From Pseudoalteromonas tetraodonis (lineage in GTDB: Bacteria; Pseudomonadota; Gammaproteobacteria; Enterobacterales; Alteromonadaceae): DNA of 32,000 nt. The DNA lies in the NCBI RefSeq assembly GCF_002310835.1, contig NZ_CP011041.1, forward strand, positions 1,410,001 to 1,442,000, given 5' to 3'. Below the pieces are notes generated by a model, which saw only the letters and a program-made list of their open reading frames with translations, ran no database searches and was not told the origin of the DNA. The position numbers and the translations under genes are program-made. Shown here in pieces: positions 9,063-31,768 of the stretch. Every line of letters starts with the position of its first letter. Position 1 is the stretch's first letter.

Positions 9063-9522
9063 CTAAAAGAGCAGCGTCTCTTAACCCTCTTTGTGCATAC
9101 TTTTCTTAAAGATCTTATTGAACTGAGAGAAGAGAATGAGGAGTAAATGAGAAGATAAAACAAGTGTTAGGGATTAGGCCCGCAGCCCGATAACTTTCGA
9201 CTTTAACCTCTAAAAGCGCAGCGTCTCTTAGCTCTCTTTGTGCATACTTTTCTTAAAGATCTAATTGAACTAAGAGAAGGGAATGAGGAACAAATGAGAA
9301 GGCCAAAAAGATGTTAGGATACAGCTCGTGACTCGCTCCCCGCAGCCCGTTAACTTTCGACTTTAACCTCCAAAAGCGCAGCGTCTCTTAGCCCTCTTTG
9401 TGCATACTTTTCTTAAAGATCTAATTGAACTAAGAGAAGGGAATGAGGAACAAATGAGAAGGCCAAAAAGATGTTAGGATACAGCTCGTAACCCGCTCCC
9501 CGCAACCCGTTAACTTTCACTT
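9063..9522. repeat. tandem array of three 147-160-nt units
   Basis: Unit starts (C[T/C]AAAAG[A/C]GCAGCGTCTCTTA...) are at 9063, 9210 and 9370. Units 2 and 3 differ by about 5 substitutions in my manual alignment. Unit 1 is more diverged and 13 nt shorter. Unit 3 runs across the stop codon (9510-9512) of the minus-strand Wzy_C gene. Confidence 0.9.
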
Positions 9523-10847
9523 CGCCGTTTTTTAATCCGTTTTGGTGCTGGCAACTTATTGGTTAATAAAGCTAAACATAACACCACGATAAACAACATC
9601 GAATTAGCCCCCGCCTGCAGCGAATAATCAACCGACGAATGCAGCATCATTGCCACAATAGCTGTAGCACAACCAAACGCCACACCCTGATAAAGGGCCG
9701 TTTTGCGCGTTCGCATAGTATTAATACATAACCATAAACAATAAACCACTAACAGCCCCAATAACGCCGTTGCAGGAATACCCAGCTCAACTGCAAATTG
9801 CACATAATCGTTGTGCGCATTGTCGTAATAACCAGAGTAGGGCTCAGACTGATACGCAGGAAACGCAGTATAAAAAGTACCGCCGCCCGAGCCTAATAAC
9901 GGGTTATCTAAAATCAGCGGGATTGAGTCGCGTACAACTTCATCGCGAGTTTCCGATTGTAAACTGGTTTCGCTAATACGTTGTTTTACCTTTTCTACAT
10001 CGAAAATGGCACCAATGATGATTAAATCGATAATGAAAAAGCTGACAATCAGCAATTTAAATGCTTTAGGCTTTTGCTTATAAACAAACAGCGCCAGTAA
10101 GCTCACTATAATTAAGGCGATAAAAAAAGCCGAATTACCCATGCGACTACGGGTTAAAATAAGTGCCACAATTATAATAATTAGCGATATACGCAAAATT
10201 ATTTTAGAGCTTAATATAATCTCAGCCCAAGCACGTAAGGTTTGTTTTAAAGTAGGCTTGTAGCCGTTGTTAGTGCGTTTTAGTTCGCTAATTAAAACAC
10301 CAATGCCTAAGCATAAACACAGCGCTAAATAGTTAGCTAAAAAGTTAGAATAGGTAAAAGTACCAATAGCTCTGTCGGTGTGTTTGTAGCCAAATAAAGG
10401 GCTAACAATATCGGGCGATAAGTTTAAGTAACTAGCATACAAAGCCTGAAAAACACCGGCGCAAATGACGGCGTAAATTAATTTTTTAATACGATTTACA
10501 TTATTACAGTAATTAAATATTAACCAGCTCAACATTATTAAAAAACTGGTTTTTAATAACATTTGTTTTGTTTGAAAAGCATCAACACTTACGCCAAATA
10601 ACTGGACCCCGCACACCAAAGCAACAATGCCTAAGGCAGTAAATAATGGCCAAGTATATCGAGGAGGGAAAAGTGCTTGGTGGTTATTTAAAACACTGTT
10701 TGCCAAGTGAGTAATAAAGGTAAAGCTAGTTAAAATACCAATAGCTAAAATTGCCCAAGGCCTGTAACTACCTAAAGGAAGGGGAAGCAAAAAAAGGATC
10801 AGACAAATAAGAAAAAATATAAAACGATTCAAAATAAACTCAAACAA
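9510..10847 (-). CDS. Wzy_C-family membrane protein (O-antigen ligase WaaL-like or PglL-like O-oligosaccharyltransferase)
   Basis: 445 aa with many hydrophobic segments. It has N-terminal LPLPLGSYRPWA, a large loop with the motif YDNAHNDYVQFAVELGI typical of Wzy_C, and a basic C-terminus. The start is uncertain: only TTG codons are available, at 10847 or 10832. Confidence 0.75.
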   Translation of the reverse strand: MFEFILNRFIFFLICLILFLLPLPLGSYRPWAILAIGILTSFTFITHLANSVLNNHQALFPPRYTWPLFTALGIVALVCGVQLFGVSVDAFQTKQMLLKTSFLIMLSWLIFNYCNNVNRIKKLIYAVICAGVFQALYASYLNLSPDIVSPLFGYKHTDRAIGTFTYSNFLANYLALCLCLGIGVLISELKRTNNGYKPTLKQTLRAWAEIILSSKIILRISLIIIIVALILTRSRMGNSAFFIALIIVSLLALFVYKQKPKAFKLLIVSFFIIDLIIIGAIFDVEKVKQRISETSLQSETRDEVVRDSIPLILDNPLLGSGGGTFYTAFPAYQSEPYSGYYDNAHNDYVQFAVELGIPATALLGLLVVYCLWLCINTMRTRKTALYQGVAFGCATAIVAMMLHSSVDYSLQAGANSMLFIVVLCLALLTNKLPAPKRIKKRRSES

Positions 10848-10876: not shown

Positions 10877-10896
10877 GAATATACTAATAGTAAAAA

Positions 10897-11442
10897 CTAG
10901 TTACCGACTTCAGATATACCGTTATCACCGCCTGTACCACCAGAACCTGGAGGTGTTGGTAATGTTGGTAAGCTGCCTACTGGCGGAGCAGGCTGACCCG
11001 CACCAGGACCTGCAGCAGTTGCTTCAGAAGCGGTTGTTGCATCAACACCTGCGGTAATTGCTGCTAGGGTAATTGCATCAGTATCTAAACCAGCATCCGA
11101 AAGAGCAGCTAAAAAGTCAGAAATTAATGGATTGTCTGCACCAAAACGTGCCACAACAGCAGCAACCATTGCATCTATATCAGCAGCGCCACAAGCGCCA
11201 TTAAGCAGTTTTTCGTCTAGCTTGATTTTTTCTTTATTTTTACAAATACGTTTAATCGCTTCTACTAAATCTTCGCGTAATTGCTCTGGCGTAGTATCTG
11301 CTGTTACGTTATTAAGAATATCAATAATGCTATTTATGCTCACTTCTTGAACCACAGCATTATTATCCGTTTGTGCATAGGTTGGCAAAGCAGTTAGAGC
11401 AGACGCACTAGCTACTAAGCCAGCTAAAATTAATTTTTTCAT
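10897..11442 (-). CDS. small secreted protein of unknown function with a low-complexity Ala/Pro/Ser/Thr/Gly tail
   Basis: Sec signal MKKLILAGLVASASALTALPTYA/QT, with AGGGA about 8 nt upstream of the ATG. It has two Cys residues (RICKNK...NGACG). The tail is DATTASEATAAGPGAGQPAPPVGSLPTLPTPPGSGGTGG. Confidence 0.75.
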   Translation of the reverse strand: MKKLILAGLVASASALTALPTYAQTDNNAVVQEVSINSIIDILNNVTADTTPEQLREDLVEAIKRICKNKEKIKLDEKLLNGACGAADIDAMVAAVVARFGADNPLISDFLAALSDAGLDTDAITLAAITAGVDATTASEATAAGPGAGQPAPPVGSLPTLPTPPGSGGTGGDNGISEVGN

Positions 11443-14161: not shown

Positions 14162-14284
14162 CCCTAAAATGTTAACAAAGCCATTATATTCCCATTGAAA
14201 GTAAATTGATAGATTACAAAAAAAGCAAAAATAACCCGTTAACATAAAATTAACCTAAAACAATCAAAAAGGCTGCTTTTTATA

Positions 14285-17971: not shown

Positions 17972-19309
17972 ATGTTCACAAGCAAAGCTTACACCTTAAG
18001 CCCGGTCATAGTGCAGAGTTTAATGTTAAGTGTAAGAGCTTTTTTACGAAAAAGGTTGAGGGAAAACAAAAGCTGCGAGCAATTTACTGATATTTTAATC
18101 AGTCATGATTATAGTGAAGTGCTCCTTAGAGGTTATTCACAGCATAAATTAGAACAAGTATTAACAGAAGCTAGTAAAAACACCCTGTATTACAAAAATT
18201 TTGGAACGAATATTAGTAGTTACCCTTTTATTGATAAAATAGAAGTAAATAGAAAGGAAGAACAATTTTTATCAAAAAATAGTAAAGGGATTTCTATAAA
18301 AGGCAGTACAAGTGGCACTACTGGTTCACCTTTGTCTGTACCTCAGAATATGAAATCTGTTATTGCAGAACAAGCATTTATAAATAGAATGATGCATTGG
18401 GCGGGTGCGAAAGCAAAAGATAAAAGAGCATGGATAAGAGGCGATATGATAGTACCTCTTACTCAAAAGAAAGGGCCGTTTTGGCGTTACTCTTATTTCG
18501 AAAATATGATTATGCTTTCATCGTTTCATATGGCAAATAAAAATTTACAGTCATACATAAATGCGATGGTTGATTTTGGTGTGCAAGTTATTCAGGCCTA
18601 TCCTTCTTCTATAGTGACTCTAGCTAAATATTTAGAAGTGAATAATCAATATTACCCAGGAAACTTAAAGTCTATTATTACTTCATCTGAATCACTAACA
18701 AAAGAAGATAAGCTGCTTATTGAAACACGCTTTAAATGTACTGTCTTTGATTGGTATGGTTTATTTGAACGTGTAGCTGCTATTGCAAGCTGTGAGTATG
18801 GTAGATACCACATATTGACAGATTACTCCTATGTAGAGTTCCTTCCAGCAAATAAAACTGAAGATGAGCGGGAAAGAGCTGAAATAGTGGGCACTAACTT
18901 TAACAATTCTCTCTATCCATTAATACGATATAAAACAGGCGATCACGTTGTATTCTCAAATGAAACTTCTTGCCCTTGTGGACGAGTTCATCCAATAGTA
19001 GATTCAATAGAAGGGCGAATTGGGGACTATTTGATAGGTGAAGATGGACAAAAAGTATACATATTAAATCATATACCTAAAGGAGTTAATGGATTAATAG
19101 CTTTGCAGTTTGTTCAGGTCATTAAAGGTGAAATCACCATTCGAGTTGTTACAGACAACAATCTATTTGATGAAAAACAACGCCTAATTTTAATAAATAA
19201 TGCAAAAGATAAACTTGGTGAGTCAATTACTTTTTCTATAGACGAAGTAAGTGCTATCCCAAGAACTAAAAACGGCAAAATACGACAAGCGATTTGTTCT
19301 CTACAATAA
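17972..19309 (+). CDS. CapK-like adenylate-forming enzyme (phenylacetate-CoA ligase / F390 synthetase family)
   Basis: ANL-type motif GSTSGTTGSPLSVP, YRTGD-like YKTGDHV, and a C-terminal Lys region (PRTKNGKIR). AAGGAA precedes the ATG. Confidence 0.7.
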   Translation: MFTSKAYTLSPVIVQSLMLSVRAFLRKRLRENKSCEQFTDILISHDYSEVLLRGYSQHKLEQVLTEASKNTLYYKNFGTNISSYPFIDKIEVNRKEEQFLSKNSKGISIKGSTSGTTGSPLSVPQNMKSVIAEQAFINRMMHWAGAKAKDKRAWIRGDMIVPLTQKKGPFWRYSYFENMIMLSSFHMANKNLQSYINAMVDFGVQVIQAYPSSIVTLAKYLEVNNQYYPGNLKSIITSSESLTKEDKLLIETRFKCTVFDWYGLFERVAAIASCEYGRYHILTDYSYVEFLPANKTEDERERAEIVGTNFNNSLYPLIRYKTGDHVVFSNETSCPCGRVHPIVDSIEGRIGDYLIGEDGQKVYILNHIPKGVNGLIALQFVQVIKGEITIRVVTDNNLFDEKQRLILINNAKDKLGESITFSIDEVSAIPRTKNGKIRQAICSLQ

Positions 19310-19317
19310 GGATAATT

Positions 19318-20454
19318 ATGAGACTTACTTACCCTATCAAGCATAGACTTCTGGATCACATCCGTTTTTTTTATCACGTTTTGACGAATGAACGTATGAA
19401 AGAGCATTTTAGACGGTTTAAAACGACATTAAATAAAAAACCTAAATCTGTTATAAAAAATGAGTTAAAGCAACTTCGAGATTATTGGTCTTGTATACCA
19501 ACACAGTATTATACCCATGATTTTTACTCGTTAGATTGCGATTTAACTATGGAAGAAATGAAAAAATATATACCTTCATACTACTTCTACAAAGTTATTT
19601 TCCCTCAATACGACAATGTAAAAGCTGTGATACCACTTATTGAAAATAAAATTACAATGAATCAGTTATTTAGTCGTATAGGCTTGCAACAGTCAAATAT
19701 TGTAGTGGTCAAAAGAAACGAAAAGTTAACAAGCTTTAATAATAAAAATTTGACGACAGAGAGTATCGATGAATTATTCAAAAATCTTACCTGTAGTAAG
19801 TTGTTTATCAAGCCTGTTATGGGAAGAGGTGGTAAAGGGATAATTATCGCAAAACGTGTAAGTGAAAGTTATGAATATAACGAAGAAAAGATAACGTATA
19901 ATTATTTGCAGGCCTTAAAAGGTGATTATGTAGTCGAATCTGCTATTGAGCAACATAGTTATTTAAATTCTATCTATCCTAATAGTGTAAATACGTTAAG
20001 AGCAATCACTGTTAGGAATAATAATGGTACGGTAGATTTTATCGCCGCTACCTTAAGAATGGGGGTTGGCGGTAATCAAGTAGATAACAGCTCTGCTGGT
20101 GGGTTATTAATCGGTATTGATTTAAATACAGGTATGGGTTTAAAGCCTTACGCGACATATGAGTACGGTATAGAAAAATTTGAGAAGCATCCAGATACTG
20201 GTTTTAGTTTTTTTGACTTACGAATACCTAATTGGGAGTGTACCAAAAACGAGATAATAAGCGCGGCAAAAAAATTGACGCAATTAAATCTTGTTGGTTG
20301 GGACATAGCAATAACGCAAAAAGAAATAGTTATAATTGAAGCAAATACACTTTTTGGTCTTGATCACACACAAGCAGGCATTGGTGGCATGAAAGATTTT
20401 TTTGTTAATAACGATCCAAAAAACTTAAAAAACATCCATAACTTCAAAGGATAA
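19318..20454 (+). CDS. ATP-grasp enzyme (sugar-transfer-associated ATP-grasp-like)
   Basis: KLFIKPVMGRGGKGIIIA, LRMGVGGNQVDNSSAGGLLIGID and IIEANTLFGLD resemble ATP-grasp ligases. The ATG at 19318 with AAGGA upstream is preferred over the overlapping ATG at 19294. Confidence 0.6.
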   Translation: MRLTYPIKHRLLDHIRFFYHVLTNERMKEHFRRFKTTLNKKPKSVIKNELKQLRDYWSCIPTQYYTHDFYSLDCDLTMEEMKKYIPSYYFYKVIFPQYDNVKAVIPLIENKITMNQLFSRIGLQQSNIVVVKRNEKLTSFNNKNLTTESIDELFKNLTCSKLFIKPVMGRGGKGIIIAKRVSESYEYNEEKITYNYLQALKGDYVVESAIEQHSYLNSIYPNSVNTLRAITVRNNNGTVDFIAATLRMGVGGNQVDNSSAGGLLIGIDLNTGMGLKPYATYEYGIEKFEKHPDTGFSFFDLRIPNWECTKNEIISAAKKLTQLNLVGWDIAITQKEIVIIEANTLFGLDHTQAGIGGMKDFFVNNDPKNLKNIHNFKG

Positions 20455-20706
20455 GTAGTATTTACTTTATACTAAATACATAGTTCGAGTTATTTAAAAC
20501 TCTTTAACATAATAAAAACTGTTAATTTCATATTGTGCTTTTTGCGTTTTAATAAAAATTGCACTCCCAATTTGTGGGCTTGAGTATTAATAAATATTTT
20601 TAAAATAATTTATTTCTATGGCCTGCTGCTAAAGCTTAGGCAATCTCATAGATATTAAGTAAGTAAGTAAATAAAATATGTTGATAACTTCCAGGATTAA
20701 AATTTG

Positions 20707-21900
20707 ATGTTTAAAAGGTTAACGGTTTTGATAAGCACAGGTTTACCTGGGTTAATCAGACTTCTAGTTTTTTTAGTAGTTGAGACAGAATACAACTTGA
20801 TTGACTTTGGTCACTTCGCTAGTGATTTATCGTTAGTTCAATTGATTTCATTTTTTACAGCTATAAGCTGGGCTGCCTTGGTGATGACAACAGTAACGCA
20901 ATCGGAGCAACCTGAAAGAGCTTTGTTTAAAGTTATGAATACTGGTGTTGTATATCTTTTGCTATTTTGCTTAATCCCTTTTGTGTTGTATAAATTGGAT
21001 ATAATAAAAGATTCTTTAGGGACAATCTGTTTTATTGTTGGATGGATGTTTTATCAAATATCAAGACACTACATCATTACAAAAAAAGAATTTACACGGA
21101 TAATAATATTTGACTCATTAAATTTATTGTTATTTATTATTGTTTTATTTTTAGGTGTTACTCCACTAATAGCGCTAACTTTATCACATCTAACCTTTGT
21201 AGTTTTTAATTTACCTAAACTTAAACACTATAGTTTAAGCTTAGTGACAATTGAACAACAGCTAAATGGTCTTAAAAATGGCCTAAGTACATTTTTACTT
21301 GGATTAGGTGTTTATAGCCTCCCTGTGATTTTTGGGCTTGTTTTAGGTGCTGAATATTCAGTGCTAATGGGGTTATCCACATCTTTGCTAATTATGATTC
21401 AATTAGTTCCTCGCTCTATTAGTGCATATTTTCTTCCAACTATCTCTAAAACATTACTGTCTGATAAGACGTTTGCGTTAAAAATGCATCGACAACAAGT
21501 ATTTTATACAATTATATCGACTGCTTTATTATCTGCGTTAGGGATTATTTTTGTATATTTTGTTTATAAATTAGCCATTTTTGAGGTTGTATTAATTGAT
21601 GGAGCTTTGAGTTTAATTTTCCTCCTTTTGTTTAATATTGTCATTACAGTTTTGGCATTTCCCTTTAGTGATCTACTGATGTCACATGGCAATTTTAAAG
21701 TCAATTTAACAGGTAGCTTTATTTACTCACTGGTAGTTACTGCTGCGCTTATTTTATTTTTAATTTATGGAGACAATACTTTACATGCAACACTGCTAAT
21801 GGTTGCATACTCGTTTTCTGGCTGTATGCGTTTTTTATATGTATTTCATAATGCTAGAAAGCTTCTATTCATAGGGAAAAGTGAGTTACTAAATGCTTGA
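20707..21900 (+). CDS. polytopic membrane protein, probable Wzx-type repeat-unit flippase
   Basis: About 397 aa and almost entirely hydrophobic helices. It lies just upstream of, and overlaps, the Wzy-like gene in a glycan locus. I recognised no diagnostic motif by eye. Confidence 0.45.
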   Translation: MFKRLTVLISTGLPGLIRLLVFLVVETEYNLIDFGHFASDLSLVQLISFFTAISWAALVMTTVTQSEQPERALFKVMNTGVVYLLLFCLIPFVLYKLDIIKDSLGTICFIVGWMFYQISRHYIITKKEFTRIIIFDSLNLLLFIIVLFLGVTPLIALTLSHLTFVVFNLPKLKHYSLSLVTIEQQLNGLKNGLSTFLLGLGVYSLPVIFGLVLGAEYSVLMGLSTSLLIMIQLVPRSISAYFLPTISKTLLSDKTFALKMHRQQVFYTIISTALLSALGIIFVYFVYKLAIFEVVLIDGALSLIFLLLFNIVITVLAFPFSDLLMSHGNFKVNLTGSFIYSLVVTAALILFLIYGDNTLHATLLMVAYSFSGCMRFLYVFHNARKLLFIGKSELLNA

Positions 21901-23128
21901 TATAAAAAACTTTAAAGCTAAAATTTTCCTTGTATTCTTAATAACACTTACATTATTACCTAATTTAATTAGGGATATGAAAGTACTTTTGGTTTTCTTT
22001 TTCTTAGCATTAGTATTAGCTTTCGAATTGATCCGGAAAGGCTTTCCAAAAAATAACTCTTTGATATATCTTTTTTTATTTTCTAGTCTGTGTTTGATCT
22101 ATGCGCTCTTCTCTTGGTTTTTTGGAAACTGGACTTATTTATACGAATTTGATCACCGCTATGTATTTCGGCAGGCTTACTTTGCTGTGATGGCACCTAT
22201 TTTTTTACTTGCTACTATCCAGATTTCAAAAGGCCTTGGTACAGACTTTTACAACTTTATAGCTAAAAACAGTATGAAATTGTTATTGGTTATATTTATG
22301 TTGGATATTATAACAGCCTTTCTTTTTGGCGATCCCCGCTTTTATTTTTATAACAATTACACATATCATCTTGATAAAGGATTTATTTGGCTTTTTGTCG
22401 CATTTTTAAGCTTTCATAGTATTTTTTGTACGAATAATGCCTCGGGTGTTACTTTGGTTGTTATATTAGGATTTGTTGCGCAAAATGTTGTTGGTTATGG
22501 AACTATGTTTACTGCAGCTACTGGACAAACTGTATTTGTTTTAATATTACTTAACTACTTCGTTTTACAGTTAACTAAAAAAGTTAAACTTTGCTATTTA
22601 ATGAACTTATCCGCTTTAGTCGCAGTAATTCTTTTTGTTTTAATTACTCCGTTTTTTTCTGATCTATTTATAAATGATTTAAATACTTATTGGCGACTTG
22701 AATCTTGGTATAAAAATATTTCTGCAGTGGCGTCAAATTTAGGTTTTGGCAGTGGCTTTGGAGTTTCATACTTTCCAATAACTCATGATGTAGTAGATGA
22801 AGCATACAAGGCTTATAGTCCAGAAGCTACCGGTGGTGGATTGTTAGATCAACTTTTTGTTCGAGGTCAGCACTCATCTATCATTAATGTGTTGTTTCGA
22901 ACTGGTGTTTTAGGCTTACTACTATTTCTTTGTTTTATTGGTAGTGCAATGTTTAACCTCAGGAAATATATGAATAGTAGGATAACATTTGCTGTACCTG
23001 TTGCAATATGCGCCGTGTTTAATGTTGCAACACATGTTGGATTAGAATCGCCACCTTTCATGATTAGCTTTTCGATAGCTTTCGGTTACCTAGTTAGCGT
23101 AAGTTGGAGTCGTAATAAGTATTTTTAA
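21893..23128 (+). CDS. polytopic membrane protein, probable Wzy-type polymerase (Wzy_C-like)
   Basis: 411 aa with many TM segments. It has a periplasmic-loop motif RGQHSSIINVLFRTGVLGLLLF that resembles the Wzy_C His motif. It overlaps the upstream gene by 8 nt. Confidence 0.55.
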   Translation: MLDIKNFKAKIFLVFLITLTLLPNLIRDMKVLLVFFFLALVLAFELIRKGFPKNNSLIYLFLFSSLCLIYALFSWFFGNWTYLYEFDHRYVFRQAYFAVMAPIFLLATIQISKGLGTDFYNFIAKNSMKLLLVIFMLDIITAFLFGDPRFYFYNNYTYHLDKGFIWLFVAFLSFHSIFCTNNASGVTLVVILGFVAQNVVGYGTMFTAATGQTVFVLILLNYFVLQLTKKVKLCYLMNLSALVAVILFVLITPFFSDLFINDLNTYWRLESWYKNISAVASNLGFGSGFGVSYFPITHDVVDEAYKAYSPEATGGGLLDQLFVRGQHSSIINVLFRTGVLGLLLFLCFIGSAMFNLRKYMNSRITFAVPVAICAVFNVATHVGLESPPFMISFSIAFGYLVSVSWSRNKYF

Positions 23129-23467: not shown

Positions 23468-23938
23468 ATGTACAAAGGTAGTATGATGAATTTAATAAAC
23501 TTTTATAATTTTGGGCATTGGGCACATAAAAAAAATATTCCACTAATACAACCGATAATTAAAATTATGATTTTTATCTTATTTAATTCTGTTGTGCCCA
23601 GCTCAGTAAGAATTGGTAAGCGTAGCCGTTTTATGTATGGTGGTATAGGCTGCGTAATACATAAAAAAGCCATAATTGGTGAGCGCGTATGTATAGGACA
23701 AGGGATCACAATAGGTAGAAAACTTAGAGAATCTTGCCCAGTGATTGGAAACGATGTTTATATAGGTGCAGGTTCTCGAATTTTAGGTGATATAACCATA
23801 GGTGATAACGTTATAATTGGTGCTAATTCAGTTGTTGTAAGTGATATCCCTTCAAATTCAATTGTAGCAGGGTCTCCTGGTAAAGTGTTAAAGAAAATTG
23901 ATAAGTCAATCTGGGATGAGCTAGGTGAAATTTTATGA
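23468..23938 (+). CDS. hexapeptide-repeat (LbH) O-acetyltransferase, serine-acetyltransferase-like
   Basis: Left-handed beta-helix repeats IGERVCIGQGITIG, IGNDVYIGAGSRILGDITIGDNVIIGANSVV and AGSPGKV. The start could instead be the ATG at 23483 or 23486. Confidence 0.8.
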   Translation: MYKGSMMNLINFYNFGHWAHKKNIPLIQPIIKIMIFILFNSVVPSSVRIGKRSRFMYGGIGCVIHKKAIIGERVCIGQGITIGRKLRESCPVIGNDVYIGAGSRILGDITIGDNVIIGANSVVVSDIPSNSIVAGSPGKVLKKIDKSIWDELGEIL

Positions 23939-25131
23939 CAGATAGCATACAAGTCATAACTAAAAAATTAATACGTGACGTAAGAAAATTAAATTACGCA
24001 GGACAGGATCCTTTTGATGGACTCAATAGTAAGTTTTTTAATTGTTTTCCTCGTTTTAAAAAAGGGTTGGTTGGTCTGGCGTGGATACAGTTACATAAGC
24101 GTTCTGCAATAAACTTAAGGTTCTTATTTGGTGTGCCCAAGAAGCGAAACCCAAAAGGCATTGGTTTATTTATTTTGGGGTTCCTGGAAGACTATAAAGC
24201 CACCAATGAGCAAAAGTACTTACATGAGGCCATAGAGCTAGCTGATTGGTTGTTAACTCAGCAAAGCGATAAAACTATTTGGCAGCATAGTTGTTGGGGC
24301 TATCATTTTGATTGGAATGCCCGTGCGTTTTTTGTACCTAAAGGTAAGCCGAATGTTATTACTACTATATATGTAGCACAGGCGTTATATGCACTAAGCG
24401 AAGTTACTAATGAAAGTAAATACTTAGACCCTGCAATTGATAGTGCCCACTTTATTGTAAAAACGTTATACAAAGAATGTGATGACAGGCAATTTTTTGG
24501 CTACATACCCGGTGAAACTGCCTTTGTACATAATGCTAGTCTTTGGGGCGCAGCGTGGGTTGCTAAAGTAGCCGTACTTACTAATAACCAACACTACAAA
24601 CAGCTTGCTTTAAATGCTGCTAGACAGTCGGTAAGCGAGCAGGGGGCTGATGGCTCATGGGTATATGGAACTCGCCATCATCACCAGTTTATTGATGGCT
24701 TTCATACCGGTTATAACCTAGAAGCGTTGCGTTTACTGAGCGATGAGTTACAAACGGATGAGTTTGAGGATGCAATTGCAAAAGGCCTTATTTATTATAA
24801 AGCGCATTTGTTTGAGCAAGATGGTACCGCAAAATATTACAACAATAACCGTTACCCACTAGATATGCATAGTGTGTCGCAGGCTGTTTTTACGCTATTG
24901 AAAGTAGGTAAGACACCAGATGACTTTGCGATGGCCGAAAAAGTAATAAACCGCGCTATTCAAACCTTGTATATGCCTAAAAAGCAGCGTTTTATTTATC
25001 AAAAAAACAAGTACTTCACTAATAAGGTTAATTACATACGTTGGACGCAAGCATGGGTTTATTATTCGTTTGCTTATTTTAATCATTACAAAATAAATAG
25101 TACTACTAGCAAAAATGTTGAACAACTTTAA
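23935..25131 (+). CDS. uncharacterised glycan-locus protein, possibly an (alpha/alpha)6-barrel fold
   Basis: 398 aa in a long ORF, with ATGA start/stop coupling to the acetyltransferase. Motifs are DPFDGLNS, WGYHFDWNARAFFVPKGKPNVITT, HNASLWGA, DGSWVYG and FIDGFHTGYNLEAL. The fold assignment is my recollection of similar proteins, not a computed result. Confidence 0.55.
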   Translation: MTDSIQVITKKLIRDVRKLNYAGQDPFDGLNSKFFNCFPRFKKGLVGLAWIQLHKRSAINLRFLFGVPKKRNPKGIGLFILGFLEDYKATNEQKYLHEAIELADWLLTQQSDKTIWQHSCWGYHFDWNARAFFVPKGKPNVITTIYVAQALYALSEVTNESKYLDPAIDSAHFIVKTLYKECDDRQFFGYIPGETAFVHNASLWGAAWVAKVAVLTNNQHYKQLALNAARQSVSEQGADGSWVYGTRHHHQFIDGFHTGYNLEALRLLSDELQTDEFEDAIAKGLIYYKAHLFEQDGTAKYYNNNRYPLDMHSVSQAVFTLLKVGKTPDDFAMAEKVINRAIQTLYMPKKQRFIYQKNKYFTNKVNYIRWTQAWVYYSFAYFNHYKINSTTSKNVEQL

Positions 25132-25145: not shown

Positions 25146-25877
25146 ATGAAACGTATTGAATTTTTAAAAGCACCAATGGATATTGCCACCATGCAAGAGA
25201 CGGTGTCTTTTATTGAAAGTAGAATTGAGCAAAAGCAGTTTTTACAGCATGTTGTGGTTAATGTAGCTAAAATAGTAAATATGCAAAAAGACCCTGTTTT
25301 AGCTGAGTCGGTTAAAGCGTGTGAAGTAATTAATATTGATGGTATGGGCGTTGTTTTTGGCGCACGCTTTTTAGGACACAATGTACCAGAGCGAGTAGCT
25401 GGGGTTGACCTTTTTCATGAACTGTTATCAATGAGCGCCAAGCGCGACTTCCCTGTGTTTTTACTTGGTGCCACCGAAGAGGTGGTTAGCAAAACAGTAA
25501 GCAAAGTTAAAGCGCAGAACCCAAATTTAAACATAGCAGGTTATAACGATGGCTACTTTTGGGATGATGAAGAGGCCGTTGTCACTAAAATACGCGAGTC
25601 GGGCGCTAAGTTATTATTTGTTGCGATTACCTCGCCTAAAAAAGAAAACTTCATAAATAAGTGGCAAGACAAACTCGGTGTAGACTTTGTTATGGGAGTA
25701 GGCGGTACGTTCGATGTTGTAGCAGGTAAAGTAAAGCGTGCACCCCTGTGGATGCAAAAGGCCGGTTTAGAGTGGCTATATAGGGTAATTCAAGAACCAG
25801 GTCGAATGTGGAAACGTTACTTAATTACAAATTCTAAATTTGCATACCTTTTGATAAAAGATAAGTTTAACGGTTGA
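25146..25877 (+). CDS. WecG/TagA/CpsF-family glycosyltransferase (ManNAc/ManNAcA-type transferase)
   Basis: VVNVAKIV, INIDGMGVVFGARFLG, RVAGVDLF, FLLGA, GVGGTFDVVAGKVKRAP.WMQKAGLEWLYRVIQEPGRMWKRY. Confidence 0.85.
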   Translation: MKRIEFLKAPMDIATMQETVSFIESRIEQKQFLQHVVVNVAKIVNMQKDPVLAESVKACEVINIDGMGVVFGARFLGHNVPERVAGVDLFHELLSMSAKRDFPVFLLGATEEVVSKTVSKVKAQNPNLNIAGYNDGYFWDDEEAVVTKIRESGAKLLFVAITSPKKENFINKWQDKLGVDFVMGVGGTFDVVAGKVKRAPLWMQKAGLEWLYRVIQEPGRMWKRYLITNSKFAYLLIKDKFNG

Positions 25878-25956: not shown

Positions 25957-25989
25957 AAGATTAACGTGAAATCGTTGATCTTTTCTTTT
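25957..25989 (+). terminator. rho-independent terminator after the WecG-like gene
   Basis: Stem AAGATTAACG (25957-25966), loop TGAAAT, stem CGTTGATCTT (25973-25982, one U-G pair), then TTCTTTT. Confidence 0.6.
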
Positions 25990-26266
25990 AAATGTGAGTA
26001 TTAACTAAAAATTAACATTTTGCAGTCCTTTATGGTGTTTTTTTTGTTTTTTTAAATTTTTTTTTATTAAAACGAACTGTAAGTCATTGATATAAAGTTT
26101 TTACTCTTTTTTAGGTACAATAAATTAGTACTTTCGTAGTGTTTTTTGTTCCTTTTGATTTTATTTGTGTATATAATGTTCACCAATTATTCGATGAATT
26201 AACTTTCATTAAACAAATGACTTAAATTTGGTGCCATCATGCACTTTTTCATTTTCGAGGGATAAA

Positions 26267-28468
26267 ATGACTAACTCACTATTAAAATTTAAAAAATTGA
26301 GTGCAGTGATCGCACTTACGCTAGCCAGTTCTACAACACTGGCTGCAGATTTAGGCGTTGCCAATGATTTTTCTGCATTTGTTTTTAATGATTTTAAATC
26401 GAATTTTGGCCGAGCTGATGGCGCTATTGCAGCAGGTGAAATTGATCTTAAAGGTTACAGCGTAGGTTACACCCGCCCATACAGCCCAGAAGAATATTAC
26501 CTAATTAGTGAATCTACCATTGCCTTTAAATATGGTCGCCAATATGTAGGTAGCATGATCGCTGGTGGCGGTACTGATATTCACTGGGGTGTACGTTGGG
26601 GTATGGAGTGGGGTTCTAAAATCCTTTCTAATCAAAATGAATCGGCCATGCCATTTAACTTTGATGAACAAGAAGAGTATTACAAAAATTTAAGCGCCGA
26701 GTTAAACCAGTTAAGCCAAACAGGTACAGTTTACCGTAAATGGGGTGGCCTTTACTTACAAGGTGATGGCAGTTCTGATAGACAAGTATTTAATTTAGAT
26801 GCTCGTGATTTTGCCAAAGCGCACACATTTAAAGTGTGGGGTATACCTGCTGATGCCACAGTAATTTTTAATATTACAGGTGATGACAATGTAGTTGTAA
26901 AAGGCAAGAGTTTTGCCCGTTTACGCCACCATGCAAGTAAAACAGTATTTAACTTTACTAATGCTCAAAAGCTAGACATTAAGGGCAACCGCTGGGAAGG
27001 CGTTGTATTAGCACCATATGCCGATATTAGAGGTGTATATGGTACAGCTAAAATGCCTATTATCGGCCAAAGCTTTTACGGTTCAATGGCGCTATTAGGT
27101 GGTGAATTTGATGGTGATTTACCATCAGTGGCACAGCCAATTTCCCCATTTGCAATCGAGCAAAAGTGGCACTGGAATTCAAGTGATTTCATGCCTGATT
27201 ATAACCAAGTTATGGCGACTCCTGTTGTTGTTCAATTAAATGATGATAACGGTGATAGCGTTATTGATAACAACGATGTGGCAGATGTGGTTGTTGTTTC
27301 TTACAAAGGAAAAGACTTATCTAATGGTATTTTAAGAGCGTTAAGCGGAATTGATGGCACTGAACTTTGGAGTTATGATGCTGGCCAGGTTGTTGATGCT
27401 AGGCATACTCCTGCTGCTGCTGATTTAGATGGAGATGGCCTGGTCGAGATAATAGTTTCTAATAAATTGGATGATTTTATAACTATTGTTGACAATAAAG
27501 GCGTTACTAAAAAGCAAATGTTAAAAGCAAGTTCAAAATGGGAAGGTACTGGGAATATTGCAATTGCGGATATTGATAGTGATGGTATTCCTGAGTTTAT
27601 GCTAGGAGACAGTGTATATAATTATAACTCTGGTGTTATATTTACCTACGGTTGGTCTGCTTCTCCAATTGCGTTTGACTCTAATAACGATGGTGTCCAA
27701 GAGGTTTTTGGTAAAGGCGAGTTAATTGATAAAGACGGAACAGTATTGTGGTCTTATTTGGGTGATGATTTAAGCTGGTTCTCATCCATAGCTGATATTG
27801 ATAATGATAGCCAGCCCGAGGTCATTCTTTCTATACCTTCAACTTCTGGCAAAAGTAGTATTGTTGTGCTAGAGCAAAATGGTAATGTTAAATGGCAAGT
27901 AAACAATCCGGCTAACCCTGGAGGCGGTGCTCAAGCTATTTCAAATTTCTTAGGCGCTGATGATTTGGGTATAGTTTACTCTGGTTTTAGCTCGATAGAT
28001 ATGTACAGCCCAGCTGGTGATATCGTTTGGACAGTAACTAACGATGACAAATGGAGCGGGAAAATGGGCGTTAGCGCGTACGACTTTAATGGCGATGGCA
28101 TTGATGAAGTAATAGTACAAGATCACTTTAAAGTAAGAGTACTAAATGGCCTTAATGGTGAGGTACTATCGACTGTTGCAAACTCTACTGCAACACTTTG
28201 GGAGTACCCAATTGTTGTTGATCTTGAGGGTGATAATAATGCAGAGCTGATTGTGGTTTCAAACAATTCTGATAGCAATTATATTATAAATAATGGTGTT
28301 ACTGTATATGGTACTGCCGATACCAGTAAGCCTTGGAAAAATGCTACCCGCATTTGGAACCAGCACTCTTACCACCAAACTAATATTAATCAAGATGGAA
28401 CTGTACCAACTGTGGAGTCACCAAGCTGGTTAAATAACAATACTTACCGCTCTAGTACACTTAAATAA
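26267..28468 (+). CDS. secreted protein with an N-terminal choice-of-anchor-A-like domain and a C-terminal FG-GAP/VCBS beta-propeller
   Basis: The ATG at 26267 follows GAGGG. Signal peptide is MTNSLLKFKKLSAVIALTLASSTTLA/AD. The N-domain has FSAFVFNDFKSN..ADGAIAAGEIDLKGYSVG and VFNFTNA...GVVLAPYADI. At least six Ca-binding-like repeats follow (DLDGDGLVEIIV, ADIDSDGIPEF, FDSNNDGVQEV, ADIDNDSQPEV, YDFNGDGIDEV, VDLEGDNNAEL). Confidence 0.8.
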   Translation: MTNSLLKFKKLSAVIALTLASSTTLAADLGVANDFSAFVFNDFKSNFGRADGAIAAGEIDLKGYSVGYTRPYSPEEYYLISESTIAFKYGRQYVGSMIAGGGTDIHWGVRWGMEWGSKILSNQNESAMPFNFDEQEEYYKNLSAELNQLSQTGTVYRKWGGLYLQGDGSSDRQVFNLDARDFAKAHTFKVWGIPADATVIFNITGDDNVVVKGKSFARLRHHASKTVFNFTNAQKLDIKGNRWEGVVLAPYADIRGVYGTAKMPIIGQSFYGSMALLGGEFDGDLPSVAQPISPFAIEQKWHWNSSDFMPDYNQVMATPVVVQLNDDNGDSVIDNNDVADVVVVSYKGKDLSNGILRALSGIDGTELWSYDAGQVVDARHTPAAADLDGDGLVEIIVSNKLDDFITIVDNKGVTKKQMLKASSKWEGTGNIAIADIDSDGIPEFMLGDSVYNYNSGVIFTYGWSASPIAFDSNNDGVQEVFGKGELIDKDGTVLWSYLGDDLSWFSSIADIDNDSQPEVILSIPSTSGKSSIVVLEQNGNVKWQVNNPANPGGGAQAISNFLGADDLGIVYSGFSSIDMYSPAGDIVWTVTNDDKWSGKMGVSAYDFNGDGIDEVIVQDHFKVRVLNGLNGEVLSTVANSTATLWEYPIVVDLEGDNNAELIVVSNNSDSNYIINNGVTVYGTADTSKPWKNATRIWNQHSYHQTNINQDGTVPTVESPSWLNNNTYRSSTLK

Positions 28469-28490
28469 AAGCTATTTATAGCAAATAAAA

Positions 28491-28520
28491 AGCCAATTAA
28501 GTTTTAATTGGCTTTTTATT
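28491..28520 (+). terminator. rho-independent terminator after the beta-propeller gene
   Basis: Stem AGCCAATTAA (28491-28500), loop GTT, stem TTAATTGGCT (28504-28513), then TTTTATT. Confidence 0.8.
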
Positions 28521-28542: not shown

Positions 28543-28977
28543 TTGGCAATTAATAATCACGTTGAATTTGAGGTTTTTTTGTCGAACTTACAGCAAGACC
28601 CCGCTATTAGAAGTTTACTAGAGCGAATGCCTAAAAACATTCAATCTACCTTTACTGATGAACAGTTAGCGCATCTAAAAATAGCCATTGGTGCTAGGCA
28701 GTGGGGTAACCATGCCGTTGATTGTAGAGGCGTAGTTAAGTTTTTTAAATACCGTTATTACTATGTTTTTTTAGCAGGACGTAATAGGCGTGAATTAAGT
28801 GCAAAAGAGCAAAAAGTAGCAAGGTTTACTCAAGCATTAATTTTAAGTACCGCAACTACTTTTTTTATTTTATTTACATTGCTGGTTTTATATTTGATTA
28901 AATCTGCATTGGGAATTGATGTTTTTGAAGGATATTCGTTTGGTGTTTGGAGTTGGTTTAAGGGCTTATTTAATTAA
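28543..28977 (+). CDS. hypothetical small membrane protein
   Basis: 144-aa ORF with a basic middle (RNRRELSAKEQK) and one clear C-terminal TM helix (ALILSTATTFFILFTLLVLYLI). The start is uncertain: TTG at 28543 without an SD, or ATG at 28627. Confidence 0.4.
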   Translation: MAINNHVEFEVFLSNLQQDPAIRSLLERMPKNIQSTFTDEQLAHLKIAIGARQWGNHAVDCRGVVKFFKYRYYYVFLAGRNRRELSAKEQKVARFTQALILSTATTFFILFTLLVLYLIKSALGIDVFEGYSFGVWSWFKGLFN

Positions 28978-29166: not shown

Positions 29167-30570
29167 ATGACATCTCCAAGGACTTTTAAACCTTCAGGTT
29201 CCTCTGATGCCAATTTTTACCGATTATTTGATATATTTGCGTTGTTTTTAGCTTTTCAGTGCGCAGCCCTAATTTATGATTTTAAACTCACTCCTATTTA
29301 TGCCGCTTCTGCATTAGCTGTTGCACTTAGCTACTTGTACAGTGCTGAGCTTTTTTCTACCTACCGTTCTTGGCGTGCTGGTAAATTTAGAACCATGGTA
29401 ATGTGTGCATGGGGTAGTGTTTTAATTGCCTTTGCGTTTTTACTGGTTGTGTCTTTTTTATTTAAGTTTACTGAGTCGCTTTCTCGCGTGGGAATCGCGA
29501 TTTGGTTTATGCTTAGTGTGGCGTATTTATATATTTGGCGTTTGGGTGCTTATTTATACAAACGCAATCGCCGTAAACTAGGTTTGTCGCAGCGGTGTGT
29601 TGCCATTATTGGTGCTACAGAGTCTGCTGCTTATTTACATGCAGAAATTGTAAAACACGACGAGCTAGGTTTTAACTTTAAAGGCTTTTACGATGACAGA
29701 AGCCCTGAACGTTTGTTTGAGCAACTTGAACAGCAAGGTGTTGAGGGCGGTATACAAAGTGCAGTAGATGCAGCACGTAATGGCGAAATAGATATACTTT
29801 ATATTGCACTCCCTATGAAAGCGCAAAAACGCATAGCTGATATTTTATTACAGCTTGGTGATACCACAGTAGATGTGCACATAGTGCCCGATTTTTTACT
29901 CTCAAACTTAATACATGCCCGTATTGAGCATGTGGGCGATGTAGATACTTTAAGCGTTTTTGAAGCGCCGTGTATTGGTGCTCACGAATTTATAAAACGA
30001 ACAGAAGATATAGTTGTTTCGGCTATTATTGTTATTTTAATCACCCCATTATTATTGACTATTGCTGCCGCAATAAAGCTAACATCTAAGGGGCCTATTA
30101 TATTTAAGCAAGATCGCTATGGCTTAGATGGCCGCAAAATAAAAGTGTGGAAGTTTCGCTCGATGACCGTGACCGAGAATAGTGATGTAGTGACTCAGGC
30201 AACCAAAAACGATGCCCGCATTACTCCACTAGGTGGTTTTTTACGCCGTACTAGCCTTGACGAACTGCCGCAATTTATAAATGTTTTAAAAGGCGATATG
30301 TCGATTGTTGGGCCAAGGCCCCATGCTGTTGCTCATAACGAAGAGTACCGAAAAAAAGTAGAATTTTACATGTTTAGGCATAAAACCAAACCGGGAATTA
30401 CCGGTTGGGCACAAATTAATGGCTGGCGCGGCGAAACCGATACTTTGGATAAAATGGCTAAGCGAGTTGAATACGACCTACATTACATTAAACATTGGTC
30501 TTTATGGTTTGATGTTAAAATAATTTTTATGACAATTTTTAAGGGATTTAAAAGTGAAAATGCGTACTAA
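29167..30570 (+). CDS. undecaprenyl-phosphate hexose-1-phosphate transferase (WbaP/WcaJ/VpsL-type initiating enzyme)
   Basis: N-terminal TM bundle, central Rossmann-like CVAIIGATESA, and the C-terminal bacterial sugar-transferase domain KGPIIFKQDRYGLDGRKIKVWKFRSM...DELPQFINVLKGDMSIVGPRPH. Confidence 0.9.
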   Translation: MTSPRTFKPSGSSDANFYRLFDIFALFLAFQCAALIYDFKLTPIYAASALAVALSYLYSAELFSTYRSWRAGKFRTMVMCAWGSVLIAFAFLLVVSFLFKFTESLSRVGIAIWFMLSVAYLYIWRLGAYLYKRNRRKLGLSQRCVAIIGATESAAYLHAEIVKHDELGFNFKGFYDDRSPERLFEQLEQQGVEGGIQSAVDAARNGEIDILYIALPMKAQKRIADILLQLGDTTVDVHIVPDFLLSNLIHARIEHVGDVDTLSVFEAPCIGAHEFIKRTEDIVVSAIIVILITPLLLTIAAAIKLTSKGPIIFKQDRYGLDGRKIKVWKFRSMTVTENSDVVTQATKNDARITPLGGFLRRTSLDELPQFINVLKGDMSIVGPRPHAVAHNEEYRKKVEFYMFRHKTKPGITGWAQINGWRGETDTLDKMAKRVEYDLHYIKHWSLWFDVKIIFMTIFKGFKSENAY

Positions 30571-31768
30571 TACAATTACCACTTTACTTGTTGCGTTAGG
30601 CTTAAGTGCACCTGCATTGGCAGTAGAATTACAACCAGGCAGTGTAATGACTAAAGACGGCGCTGAGATTACACCTACGCTACAGTTAGGTGTGAGCAGC
30701 AACGACAACTTTTTTATGACGCCGTCTGCCACTCAGTCACGTTTAATATGGAATATAGCGCCGAGTTTAAATGCATTGATTGAAGATGGCCCAGACAGTT
30801 ATAAATTTGATATTGCATCAAGCACGTCGTTTCATAATAAAGACACAACCGATAACTTTACTCAAGTAAATGTAGGCGCAGGTGTGCATAAAGAGTTTAC
30901 TAGTCAACACCGTTTAGATGTTACTGGTGATGCCGACTGGTTGTACGAGCCACGTGGTGGCGGATTAACTGAAGGCCAGGGCAGCGCTCTAGATGAGCTT
31001 GTAAATTATCAGCAACAAAACCTAACTGCTCGCTACGAATACGGCGCACAAAGCTCTAAAGCAATGGTTGCTTTAACTGCGGGTTACTATAACAAAAATT
31101 ACCAAAATTTTACGGCTATATCTCAATTTCGTAATTACGATAAACCTATGTTAGGTGTTATTGGTTATTATAATACCCAAGCAGGCACGCGCGCATTTTT
31201 AGAAGTAAAGCAAGAAAACTACCAATACGATGTGATTGATTCAAACGGTATTACCCGTGACTCAGACGACGTAAAAGTATTATTAGGTATGGAATGGGAA
31301 GCCACAGCCGTTACTACTGGTTCATTTAAAGTCGGTTACCAAAATAAAGATTTTGAGTCAAGCCTGCGCGATAACTTTAGTGGTTTAAGCTGGGAAGCCG
31401 CAGCTGTTTGGAAGCCGTTGACCTATTCAACTTTACAATTAGTTACCAGTCGTGCCGCTAAAGACCCTTTATTAGAAGGCGATTACATTCGCGAGAGTGT
31501 TTACGGTGCAACGTGGCAGCATGATTGGAGCGAGTATTTAAGCTCGGTAGTCAGTGCTAATTATGTTGATCAACAGTACTCTGGTAATTTTAATCGTAAA
31601 GATAAAGTTAAAAATGCCCGCCTAGGCTTAAATTATTTAGCCAGTAACTTTGGTATGGTAACCGGCTATGTTGATTTTATTGATCGTAATTCAACTCAAG
31701 CGGACATTGAATTTGACCGCGTGATTGTGGGCCTAAACTTTACATTTGCATTAAAGGGAAATGAATGA
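30554..31768 (+). CDS. putative outer-membrane beta-barrel protein of the polysaccharide export module (VpsM-like position)
   Basis: Signal peptide MRTNTITTLLVALGLSAPALA/VE. The sequence is rich in alternating aromatic/hydrophilic strands (YEYGAQ, GYYN, FKVGYQN, GLNFTFAL). It overlaps the transferase gene by 17 nt (11 nt if the ATG at 30560 is the start). Confidence 0.5.
   Translation: MKMRTNTITTLLVALGLSAPALAVELQPGSVMTKDGAEITPTLQLGVSSNDNFFMTPSATQSRLIWNIAPSLNALIEDGPDSYKFDIASSTSFHNKDTTDNFTQVNVGAGVHKEFTSQHRLDVTGDADWLYEPRGGGLTEGQGSALDELVNYQQQNLTARYEYGAQSSKAMVALTAGYYNKNYQNFTAISQFRNYDKPMLGVIGYYNTQAGTRAFLEVKQENYQYDVIDSNGITRDSDDVKVLLGMEWEATAVTTGSFKVGYQNKDFESSLRDNFSGLSWEAAAVWKPLTYSTLQLVTSRAAKDPLLEGDYIRESVYGATWQHDWSEYLSSVVSANYVDQQYSGNFNRKDKVKNARLGLNYLASNFGMVTGYVDFIDRNSTQADIEFDRVIVGLNFTFALKGNE

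Follow-up and report, generated by a model that had tools for sequence, protein, structure and literature searches.

Introduction

In Vibrio cholerae, the propellers of the matrix proteins Bap1 and RbmC bind Vibrio polysaccharide (VPS) while their other modules face the environment, an arrangement demonstrated experimentally by Huang et al. (2023) and likened to "double-sided tape" (PMC10102183). At least one beta-prism lectin domain is stated for both proteins (PMC11451748, PMC10102183). RbmC (VC0930) carries two mucin-binding beta/gamma-crystallin domains (M1M2) and two beta-prism lectin domains, whereas Bap1 (VC1888; PDB 6MLT) has a beta-prism and a 57-aa loop that binds lipids and abiotic surfaces. 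A further variant, termed "RbmC with beta-helix", was recently noticed in five genes from two Vibrio species, V. alfacsensis and V. sp002608565, and is uncharacterised (Yang et al., bioRxiv 2024.08.19.608685 / PMC11451748).

Here we analyze a gene of Pseudoalteromonas tetraodonis that encodes a 733-residue protein and lies inside a vps-like polysaccharide cluster within a 32,000-nucleotide stretch of contig NZ_CP011041.1 (positions 1,410,001 to 1,442,000, forward strand), hereafter the window. We consider it probable that the product is an RbmC/Bap1-family adhesin of the biofilm matrix, secreted and built of two parts, and that it belongs to the "RbmC with beta-helix" variant. This assessment draws on homology, domain architecture, synteny, conservation of pocket residues, a signal peptide and the absence of an anchor, and the secretion route, the ligand of each domain, regulation and phenotype are what we infer. 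A first-pass annotation made by a model from the DNA letters had proposed a candidate matrix or adhesion protein, and propeller homology, vps synteny and the pocket tryptophans lend that proposal support.

Results

Domain organization and the propeller

The open reading frame (ORF) at 26267-28468 on the plus strand is real. It starts at ATG 26267 behind a GAGGGA ribosome-binding site, orthologues use the same methionine, and the product is laid out as follows:

26267..26344, plus strand: Sec-type signal peptide (residues 1-26), with predicted cleavage between TLA and AD, conserved across orthologues
26345..27121, plus strand: choice-of-anchor A (CAA) / pAdhesive_15 domain (residues 27-285), matched by TIGR04215 and PF20597; predicted beta-solenoid with one long flanking helix
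27122..27154, plus strand: variable linker (residues 286-296), the apparent joint of a domain mosaic, recognized by model confidence and a drop in identity
27155..28465, plus strand: Bap1/RbmC-type beta-propeller (residues 297-733) with no beta-prism insert, assigned by the 6MLT profile, Foldseek and identity

When a profile of 24 orthologues was compared with all sequences in the PDB, one strong match was obtained, V. cholerae Bap1 (6MLT_A; E 1.1e-164, 553 bits). Query residues 293-570 aligned with chain residues 9-291, and residues 562-733 with 438-609. The skipped chain segment, 292-437, is the inserted beta-prism of Bap1, for which the target has about four residues; a Pfam scan of the target gave no match to PF16458. 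Bap1 (6mlt) also ranked first in a Foldseek search with the AlphaFold2 (AF2) model of the target (E 2e-46, TM-score 0.70), followed by BamB (E 8e-11); TM-scores to 6mlt were 0.59-0.71, and a second model, described below, repeated the Bap1 result. The target propeller is identical to that of Bap1 at 54% of 441 aligned positions, and its identity to the V. cholerae RbmC propeller is 48% and 67% in two matched stretches, or 57% over the alignment used for the tree below. Like Bap1, it has an N-terminal KW-W Velcro strand and a WNQ...R motif at the C-terminal end, and the Velcro-strand tryptophans W301 and W303 are invariant among orthologues. The 57-aa loop with which Bap1 binds lipids and abiotic surfaces is absent from the target.

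The C-terminal part was also matched above cut-off by the FG-GAP_3 (50.3 bits) and FG-GAP (34.8 bits) profiles. The first-pass annotation had counted at least six FG-GAP repeats with calcium-binding loops of the form D-x-D/N-x-D-G. With the strict pattern D-x-[DN]-x-[DN]-G there are four, at residues 386, 435, 471 and 606, and with a relaxed one (last position G/S/N, third D/N/E) there are seven, adding residues 326, 510 and 652, so that the count holds for the relaxed form and not for the strict one. The same annotation had called the protein architecturally analogous to RbmC and Bap1 and had proposed comparing its predicted structure with their propellers. The profile match and the identity to Bap1 go beyond analogy: judged from these similarities, the target propeller is a true homologue of the Bap1/RbmC propeller rather than a mere analogue, and by that homology it would have eight blades.

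Partial conservation of the Bap1 contact residues

The crystal structure of Bap1 with a VPS tetrasaccharide identifies the contact residues (bioRxiv 10.64898/2026.08.03.742583), which were mapped onto the target after their numbering had been checked (residue letters match at 16 of 16 sites). Ten of the 16 are identical. They include the four tryptophans of the binding cradle (W425, W463, W504 and W645 in the target, equivalent to Bap1 W164, W202, W243 and W599), together with the equivalents of Bap1 M53, R118, S551, K553, T597 and L598.

These residues bear on whether the protein might be an enzyme, that is, a lyase or hydrolase acting on the polymer of the locus in the role of the missing RbmB, its propeller being catalytic as in the rhamnogalacturonan lyases of family PL11. 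Foldseek matches after Bap1 do include the PL11 lyases YesW and YesX (E ~1e-9), a related propeller is fused to a GH16-like domain in protein P0143, and an RbmB homologue is absent from the window. The PL11 resemblance is generic, however, with 15-16% identity and TM-scores of 0.37-0.45 against 54% and 0.59-0.71 for Bap1 (6mlt), which makes a lyase role very unlikely. What is kept in common with Bap1 are the binding-cradle tryptophans, and Pfam/NCBIfam-type scans of the target gave no match to a polysaccharide lyase (PL) or glycoside hydrolase (GH) profile. Bap1 and RbmC themselves are described as VPS-binding adhesins, with no enzyme activity reported (bioRxiv 10.64898/2026.08.03.742583, PMC10102183).

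Signal peptide and absence of a cell anchor

The N terminus, MTNSLLKFKKLSAVIALTLASSTTLA followed by AD, combines a basic n-region with a hydrophobic core, carries small residues at -3 and -1, and is the sole hydrophobic segment of the 733-residue protein. There are no cysteines, so the protein has no lipobox and is not a lipoprotein. No C-terminal sorting signal of the PEP-CTERM, LPXTG or type IX secretion system (T9SS) kind was found, either as a hydrophobic tail or as a motif; the C terminus is the last propeller strand and aligns to the very end of the Bap1 propeller. Both the 733-aa ORF with its Sec signal and the lack of a sorting signal had been read correctly in the first pass. A Sec signal combined with no cell anchor is likewise found in Bap1.

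The N-terminal CAA domain

The target differs from Bap1 in its N-terminal domain, in which a CAA pattern had already been recognized. A hidden Markov model scan bears this out, with TIGR04215 (choice_anch_A) scoring 179 bits against a cut-off of 29 (E 1.3e-52, residues 33-282) and Pfam PF20597 (pAdhesive_15, "putative ice-binding-like adhesive domain") scoring 137.8 bits against 23.8; the domain is a full-length, high-scoring member of its family. A first AF2 model, made with 24 close orthologues, left residues 1-160 unmodelled. In the second, made with 42 sequences including Vibrionaceae (mean predicted local distance difference test score, pLDDT, 82.6), most ten-residue blocks between about 40 and 280 lie at pLDDT 73-93, and the domain appears as stacked strand coils with a long helix at 132-147. 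Linker residues 287-291 fall below 50, and mean pairwise identity of the linker is 55% among the 24 orthologues. A search with the CAA domain alone against a set of 5.8 billion proteins returned seven short proteins and no diversity.

Typical bacterial CAA proteins end in a PEP-CTERM, LPXTG or T9SS signal (P0127, for example), whereas the target does not; unlike theirs, the C-terminal partner of its CAA domain is a putative polysaccharide-binding propeller. Such a signal, from which the family takes its name, usually accompanies the CAA domain, but the domain model does not demand it. Experiments connect CAA domains with adhesion in two groups of eukaryotes that have borrowed them: Acanthamoeba, whose cyst-wall Jonah lectin binds cellulose (PMC6541295), and diatoms, whose adhesive trails contain Trailins (10.1101/2023.03.06.531300). 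The Trailins resemble the target in having neither a membrane nor a cell-wall anchor. In the Pseudoalteromonas protein it is plausibly the propeller that provides the anchorage, to polysaccharide.

The CAA/pAdhesive_15 fold is called ice-binding-protein-like, by Pfam and as a prediction in the diatom study (10.1101/2023.03.06.531300), and the solenoid could accordingly be imagined to fasten cold-adapted Pseudoalteromonas cells or their matrix to sea ice. Orthologues are found in P. arctica and other cold-water strains. The ice-binding motif T-[AG]-x-[TN] was not found in the target CAA domain, though, and the architecture is shared by Vibrio alfacsensis, Grimontia indica and Enterovibrio, which are not known to be cold-adapted; for these reasons we hold an ice adhesin to be highly improbable. 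The diatom study, too, judges ice binding by CAA domains unlikely (10.1101/2023.03.06.531300).

Distribution of the CAA-propeller architecture

Full-length orthologues, 56-100% identical, form more than 100 clusters (at 90% identity) from Pseudoalteromonas. When one genome per species was scanned, the full CAA-propeller architecture also turned up in Aliivibrio, Enterovibrio, Grimontia and Vibrio; Psychromonas, V. alfacsensis and a Grimontia indica entry named "Hemolysin-related protein RbmC" came from a profile search. As judged from these sequences, the combination is the standard form across Pseudoalteromonas. The first-pass annotation had considered a CAA domain without an anchor unusual; with more than 100 clusters here, and "RbmC with beta-helix" proteins in Vibrio (PMC11451748), that does not apply to this lineage.

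By the same kind of evidence the target belongs to the published "RbmC with beta-helix" variant. The profile search placed two V. alfacsensis proteins, P0315 and P0320, in the family of the target, to which they are 47-48% identical. Variant and target alike consist of a signal peptide, an N-terminal beta-helix (predicted in the target) and a propeller, with no beta-prism or M1M2, and are encoded directly after vps-1 genes. The text of the Yang et al. survey refers neither to choice-of-anchor A nor to genera other than Vibrio (PMC11451748), whereas the target has a CAA domain and comes from Pseudoalteromonas. The locus also differs from that of the Vibrio variant: it lacks rbmA and rbmB, its rbmD homologue has been displaced, and its vps-1 genes are another set, which varies. 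With no beta-prism, the target is excluded from standard RbmC and Bap1 but not from the "RbmC with beta-helix" group.

The beta-prism also decides how database names should be read. Several orthologue records are named "hemolysin" or "Hemolysin-related protein RbmC", and a haemolysin or cytolysin would be the literal reading. The name was presumably inherited from the old "hemolysin-related" annotation of VC1888 and VC0930, which we take to have been based on the beta-prism lectin domain. That domain is absent from the target, leaving the label unsupported, and domain scans gave no match to a pore-forming or RTX family, so that we assign this function a negligible probability.

Bap1-type propellers occur in other contexts as well. 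They are fused to the GH16-like domain of P0143 and to RCC1-like repeats (P0134), and they lie inside proteins of 2,000-5,000 residues, P0130 being among the proteins noted; in Photobacterium jeanii (locus L017) a 3,645-aa protein has a CAA-like start and a Bap1-type propeller within. The GH16-like, RCC1-like and giant-protein contexts mark the propeller as a widely reused module.

Genomic position of the adhesin gene

The V. cholerae rbmC locus was fetched and its proteins were compared directly with those of the window. The genes are assigned as follows (ManNAcA, N-acetylmannosaminuronic acid; GulNAcA, N-acetylgulosaminuronic acid):

15348-16481: WecB-type gene, corresponding to VpsA
16515-17765: WecC-type gene, corresponding to VpsB
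17972..19309, plus strand: vpsH homologue (CapK-like ligase), 55% to V. cholerae VpsH over 445 aa
23468-23938: VpsG homologue, 47% to V. cholerae VpsG
23935..25131, plus strand: vpsJ homologue (proposed C5-epimerase making L-GulNAcA), 57% to V. cholerae VpsJ
25146..25877, plus strand: vpsK homologue (WecG-family ManNAcA transferase), last vps-1-like gene; PF03808 208 bits, 72% to VpsK over the full length
29167..30570, plus strand: vpsL homologue (WcaJ-type initiating phosphoglucosyltransferase), first vps-2-like gene; TIGR03023 543 bits, 52% to VpsL
30554..31768, plus strand: vpsM homologue (BBP2_2 outer-membrane barrel); PF10082 107 bits, 26% to VpsM, E 7e-34
9510..10847, minus strand: rbmD homologue (Wzy_C / O-antigen-ligase-like), displaced upstream of the cluster; PF04932 79 bits, 46% to RbmD

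According to a 2026 mBio study of VPS assembly, glucose, placed by VpsL, is the first sugar of the repeat unit, ManNAcA is added by VpsA, VpsB and VpsK, and acetyl by VpsG; VpsJ is proposed to epimerize ManNAcA to L-GulNAcA, and VpsH adds glycine to GulNAcA in V. cholerae (see also PMC13463779). Because homologues of VpsL, VpsA, VpsB, VpsK, VpsJ, VpsH and VpsG are all present in the window, the locus can be assigned as a vps-type biofilm matrix cluster. By analogy with V. cholerae, we infer that its polymer shares the glucose-GulNAcA (amino-acyl, O-acetyl) part with VPS and differs in the rest. The target gene sits between the VpsK (72%) and VpsL (52%) homologues, which is the rbmA-F slot of V. 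cholerae; the earlier placement of the gene between vps-like modules, the downstream one starting with a sugar transferase, is thereby confirmed. This slot between vpsK and vpsL is shared with rbmC, whereas bap1 lies elsewhere in the V. cholerae genome and not inside the polysaccharide cluster (PMC11451748). Target and RbmC may, by analogy, also share the pairing of a polysaccharide-binding propeller with an outward-facing module, which in RbmC consists of the M1M2 and beta-prism domains and in the target of the CAA domain instead.

Synteny was followed in 21 loci beyond the window, from six genera. The adhesin gene lies downstream of vps-1-type genes in these 21 loci and directly after a vpsK homologue in most of them, namely the full-architecture loci of Vibrionaceae (Aliivibrio, Enterovibrio, Grimontia, Vibrio) and most Pseudoalteromonas loci. 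Extra sequence separates the vpsK homologue and the adhesin gene in L001 (8640-10000), L002 (8622-10000) and L045 (8689-9645); in L045 it holds a gene for an Acyl_transf_3 protein, and in L001 and L002 it is a stretch of about 1 kb, despite which both keep the conserved promoter block of the adhesin gene described below.

Loci of Vibrionaceae have an rbmD homologue 2-4 kb downstream of the adhesin gene, to which the displaced homologue in the window is 42-45% identical, and L007 carries an RbmB-like beta-helix gene as well. The downstream module of Pseudoalteromonas loci is constant and consists of a small transmembrane protein, VpsL/M/N/O-like proteins, a CpsB/CapC-family protein and a 237-aa protein, and its vpsL-to-vpsO-like part is 90-97% identical in most loci. 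The upstream module is strain-variable; L040, L043, L003 and L012 have no vpsH, vpsJ or vpsK homologues.

The two halves of the protein evolve differently

Among the 24 Pseudoalteromonas orthologues, mean pairwise identity is 82% for the CAA domain and 56% for the propeller, and 42-49% for the blades within residues 371-560. The halves are also discordant between individual proteins. P0109-P0116 are 92-94% identical to the target in the CAA domain and 38-40% in the propeller, whereas P0003 is 79% identical in the CAA domain and 92% in the propeller, which argues for recombination near the linker. The locus of P0003 (L041) shares the upstream gene set of the window, the sole clearly concordant pair, as would fit a propeller inherited together with its polysaccharide type.

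The strong conservation of the CAA domain, in strains whose polysaccharide genes differ, fits a ligand that is invariant, self-derived or generic. The protein could then be a matrix cross-linker or cell-surface retention factor, with its propeller on the exopolysaccharide and its CAA domain on a second bacterial polymer (cellulose, another exopolysaccharide, or the lipopolysaccharide or outer membrane of the cell itself), stiffening the matrix or retaining the polymer. In keeping with this, the one binding-assayed CAA protein that we found in the literature read, the Jonah lectin of the Acanthamoeba cyst wall, binds cellulose (PMC6541295), and in most bacterial proteins the CAA domain resides on cell-anchored proteins such as P0127 with its PEP-CTERM tail. 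The comparison with V. cholerae points the other way, as the non-propeller modules there are turned towards the environment and Bap1 shows no binding to the cell surface (PMC10102183). Diatom CAA proteins, moreover, are found in substratum trails and not in a biofilm matrix (10.1101/2023.03.06.531300), and the window contains no bcs or second polysaccharide locus. On balance we regard a cross-linker as unlikely and retain the environment-facing matrix adhesin as the preferred interpretation.

A neighbour-joining tree of propellers, with 200 bootstraps on its Kimura-distance version, bears on the origin of the two forms. CAA-type propellers were monophyletic in 0 of 200 replicates, and RbmC and Bap1 grouped together in 189 of 200, their clade lying within the CAA types. 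The sequences thus hint that the CAA form predates the prism form, a direction opposite to that of Yang et al., in whose account the beta-helix replaced M1M2 and the prisms (PMC11451748); the tree is limited by a crude method, distant rooting and a mosaic that could mislead. A tentative, speculative extension is that the CAA-propeller protein is the ancestral and most widespread "double-sided tape" adhesin of marine Gammaproteobacteria, its halves exchanged as cassettes by recombination at the linker, with a near-invariant CAA domain as a universal underwater glue and rapidly diversifying, polysaccharide-matched propellers.

Evidence against the matrix-adhesin interpretation

Several observations weigh against a matrix adhesin of the RbmC/Bap1 kind. 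Six of the 16 Bap1 contacts are changed (Y88 gap, Y119H, L266S, Y528F, N550W and G596A). In Bap1, N550 and G596 are part of an induced Mg site, and Y528 and L266 contact glycine (bioRxiv 10.64898/2026.08.03.742583). With these positions altered, the ligand or binding mode of the target may differ from VPS, and judging from the residues kept and lost its ligand is probably related to VPS and not identical to it. Some loci with vpsJ/K homologues encode propellers without three of the four tryptophans. No homologues of VpsI and VpsD (third and fourth sugars), VpsE/F or RbmA/RbmB were found in the window, from which it follows that the polymer of the locus is not VPS itself; the window instead holds an ATP-grasp gene, a protein with ten transmembrane segments and a different Wzy. 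Across 13 Pseudoalteromonas loci, propeller identity was weakly and non-significantly correlated with similarity of the upstream biosynthesis genes (rho 0.39, p 0.19), and co-variation of propeller and polysaccharide is therefore not claimed. Finally, comparison of the CAA fold with solved structures yielded nothing: the top 50 Foldseek matches of the full model are all propellers and so none reported on the CAA fold, and a CAA profile run against PDB sequences gave chance matches alone (E above 0.09). As neither search was informative, the description of the fold as ice-binding-protein-like is that of Pfam and of the diatom study (10.1101/2023.03.06.531300).

Flanking hairpins and the leader of the adhesin gene

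The following elements surround the adhesin gene:

25957..25982, plus strand: terminator-like hairpin followed by a T-run, which closes the vps-1-like operon behind the vpsK homologue (scan, folding)
25990..26266, plus strand: AT-rich leader/promoter region (GC content, conservation)
28484..28520, plus strand: strong terminator-like hairpin after the stop codon (folding)

The hairpin at 25957-25982 has a folding free energy of -17 kcal/mol (z -4.2) and that at 28484-28520 one of -23.6 kcal/mol (z -5.3), and for each, 0 of 200 shuffled sequences were as stable. Other Pseudoalteromonas loci have a different hairpin at the position of the first. The leader has a GC content of 23.8% against 38.2% for the window. 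Terminators bracketing the gene and an AT-rich leader of about 280 nt had both been proposed in the first pass, and scan, shuffled folding and base composition agree with them.

The last ~170 nt of the leader (26095-26266) is strongly conserved in six Pseudoalteromonas loci despite differing upstream genes. This block holds a TATAAT at 26172-26177 paired with a poor -35 element, which suggests that the promoter is probably activator-dependent; a sigma-70 scan of the leader gave no consensus promoter. A 5-bp hairpin (26230-26245) with a U-run stands directly ahead of the ribosome-binding site, and a search of the leader for riboswitches and known RNAs matched no Rfam family. The block could be a regulator site or a small attenuator. 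Two flanking hairpins together with a conserved 5' region support reading the adhesin gene as a separate monocistronic unit, which is plausible from the sequence. The transcription unit of its own envisaged in the first pass thus gains from the hairpins and the conserved block, and is qualified by the missing sigma-70 consensus and by resting on prediction.

Other features of the window

An ATP-grasp_ST gene (19294-20454, plus strand; 175 bits) adjoins the VpsH-like ligase. It has no counterpart in the compared part of V. cholerae vps (vpsE-vpsQ), recurs in L041, L044 and an Aliivibrio metagenome-assembled genome (L027, 58%), and may add a second amino-acid decoration to the polymer. The central biosynthesis genes (17972-23128) are strain-variable and have a GC content of 32% against 38% for the window; a variable centre with a constant downstream module resembles cassette exchange at O-antigen loci.

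Between the adhesin gene and the vpsL homologue, a small ORF (28543-28977, plus strand) with one predicted transmembrane segment is present in nearly all Pseudoalteromonas loci, L002 being negative by tblastn. It encodes 144 aa here and 132-134 aa in most orthologous loci, has no Pfam/NCBIfam match, and does not detectably resemble RbmE/F or VpsQ of V. cholerae.

At 11464-14245 on the minus strand, a short way upstream of the polysaccharide genes, lie genes for the cyclic di-GMP receptor LapD (E 5e-103) and the protease LapG (E 8e-66), adjoining the rbmD homologue and an unassigned 181-aa ORF (9510-11442, minus strand). No LapA-type substrate was found in the window. With this pair nearby, "IAAG" at residues 54-57 of the adhesin was considered as a LapG cleavage site and rejected, because it falls within a core motif conserved among CAA domains, G-x-[LI]-A-x-G (in Vibrionaceae "LAIG" or "LAVG"), and because the target is Sec-dependent and has no LapA-type retention module. 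Farther upstream, between housekeeping genes (tmk, holB, tatD-like) and the rbmD/lapDG block, a 619-aa ORF (7025-8884, plus strand) has a weak match to a PhoD-like phosphatase (37 bits).

Discussion

The mechanism that we propose follows the V. cholerae precedent. The adhesin gene would be transcribed as its own unit from the conserved, probably activator-dependent promoter, and the protein would be exported by Sec and then, as for Bap1 and RbmC, probably by type II secretion. Its propeller would bind, in a central pocket walled by the four tryptophans, the VPS-like exopolysaccharide produced by the strain itself; that polysaccharide, with a predicted Glc-GulNAcA(amino-acyl, O-acetyl) unit, would be made by the flanking vpsA/B/H/G/J/K and vpsL/M homologues. 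The CAA solenoid would take the place of the beta-prism and beta/gamma-crystallin modules of Bap1 and RbmC as a sticky, environment-facing module, so that, like double-sided tape, the protein could link the matrix polysaccharide with a substratum or with a different polymer.

In the literature searched we found no paper reporting this cluster or protein in Pseudoalteromonas, and an Aliivibrio genome paper mentions "rbmC/bap1" homologues beside a VPS-type locus. Four points go further than the literature that we found: the recognition that the beta-helix is a CAA domain, the wide occurrence of the family beyond Vibrio, the retention of the tryptophan cradle and the mosaic of the two domains.

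If the interpretation is correct, VPS with RbmC and Bap1, the best-understood biofilm matrix system, would extend to Pseudoalteromonas, a dominant marine surface colonizer, and a variant known from five Vibrio genes would be the common form in several genera. The CAA domain, whose function is poorly known, would gain a defined partner and a testable role as the outward face of a polysaccharide-anchored adhesin, and misleading "hemolysin" labels in databases would be corrected. The mosaic and the hypervariable propeller suggest how matrix adhesins may track changing exopolysaccharides, with the correlation reported above non-significant. Should the CAA-propeller form prove ancestral, a genetically tractable Pseudoalteromonas would provide a first bacterial genetic system for finding the ligand of the CAA domain, a domain borrowed by diatoms and amoebae.

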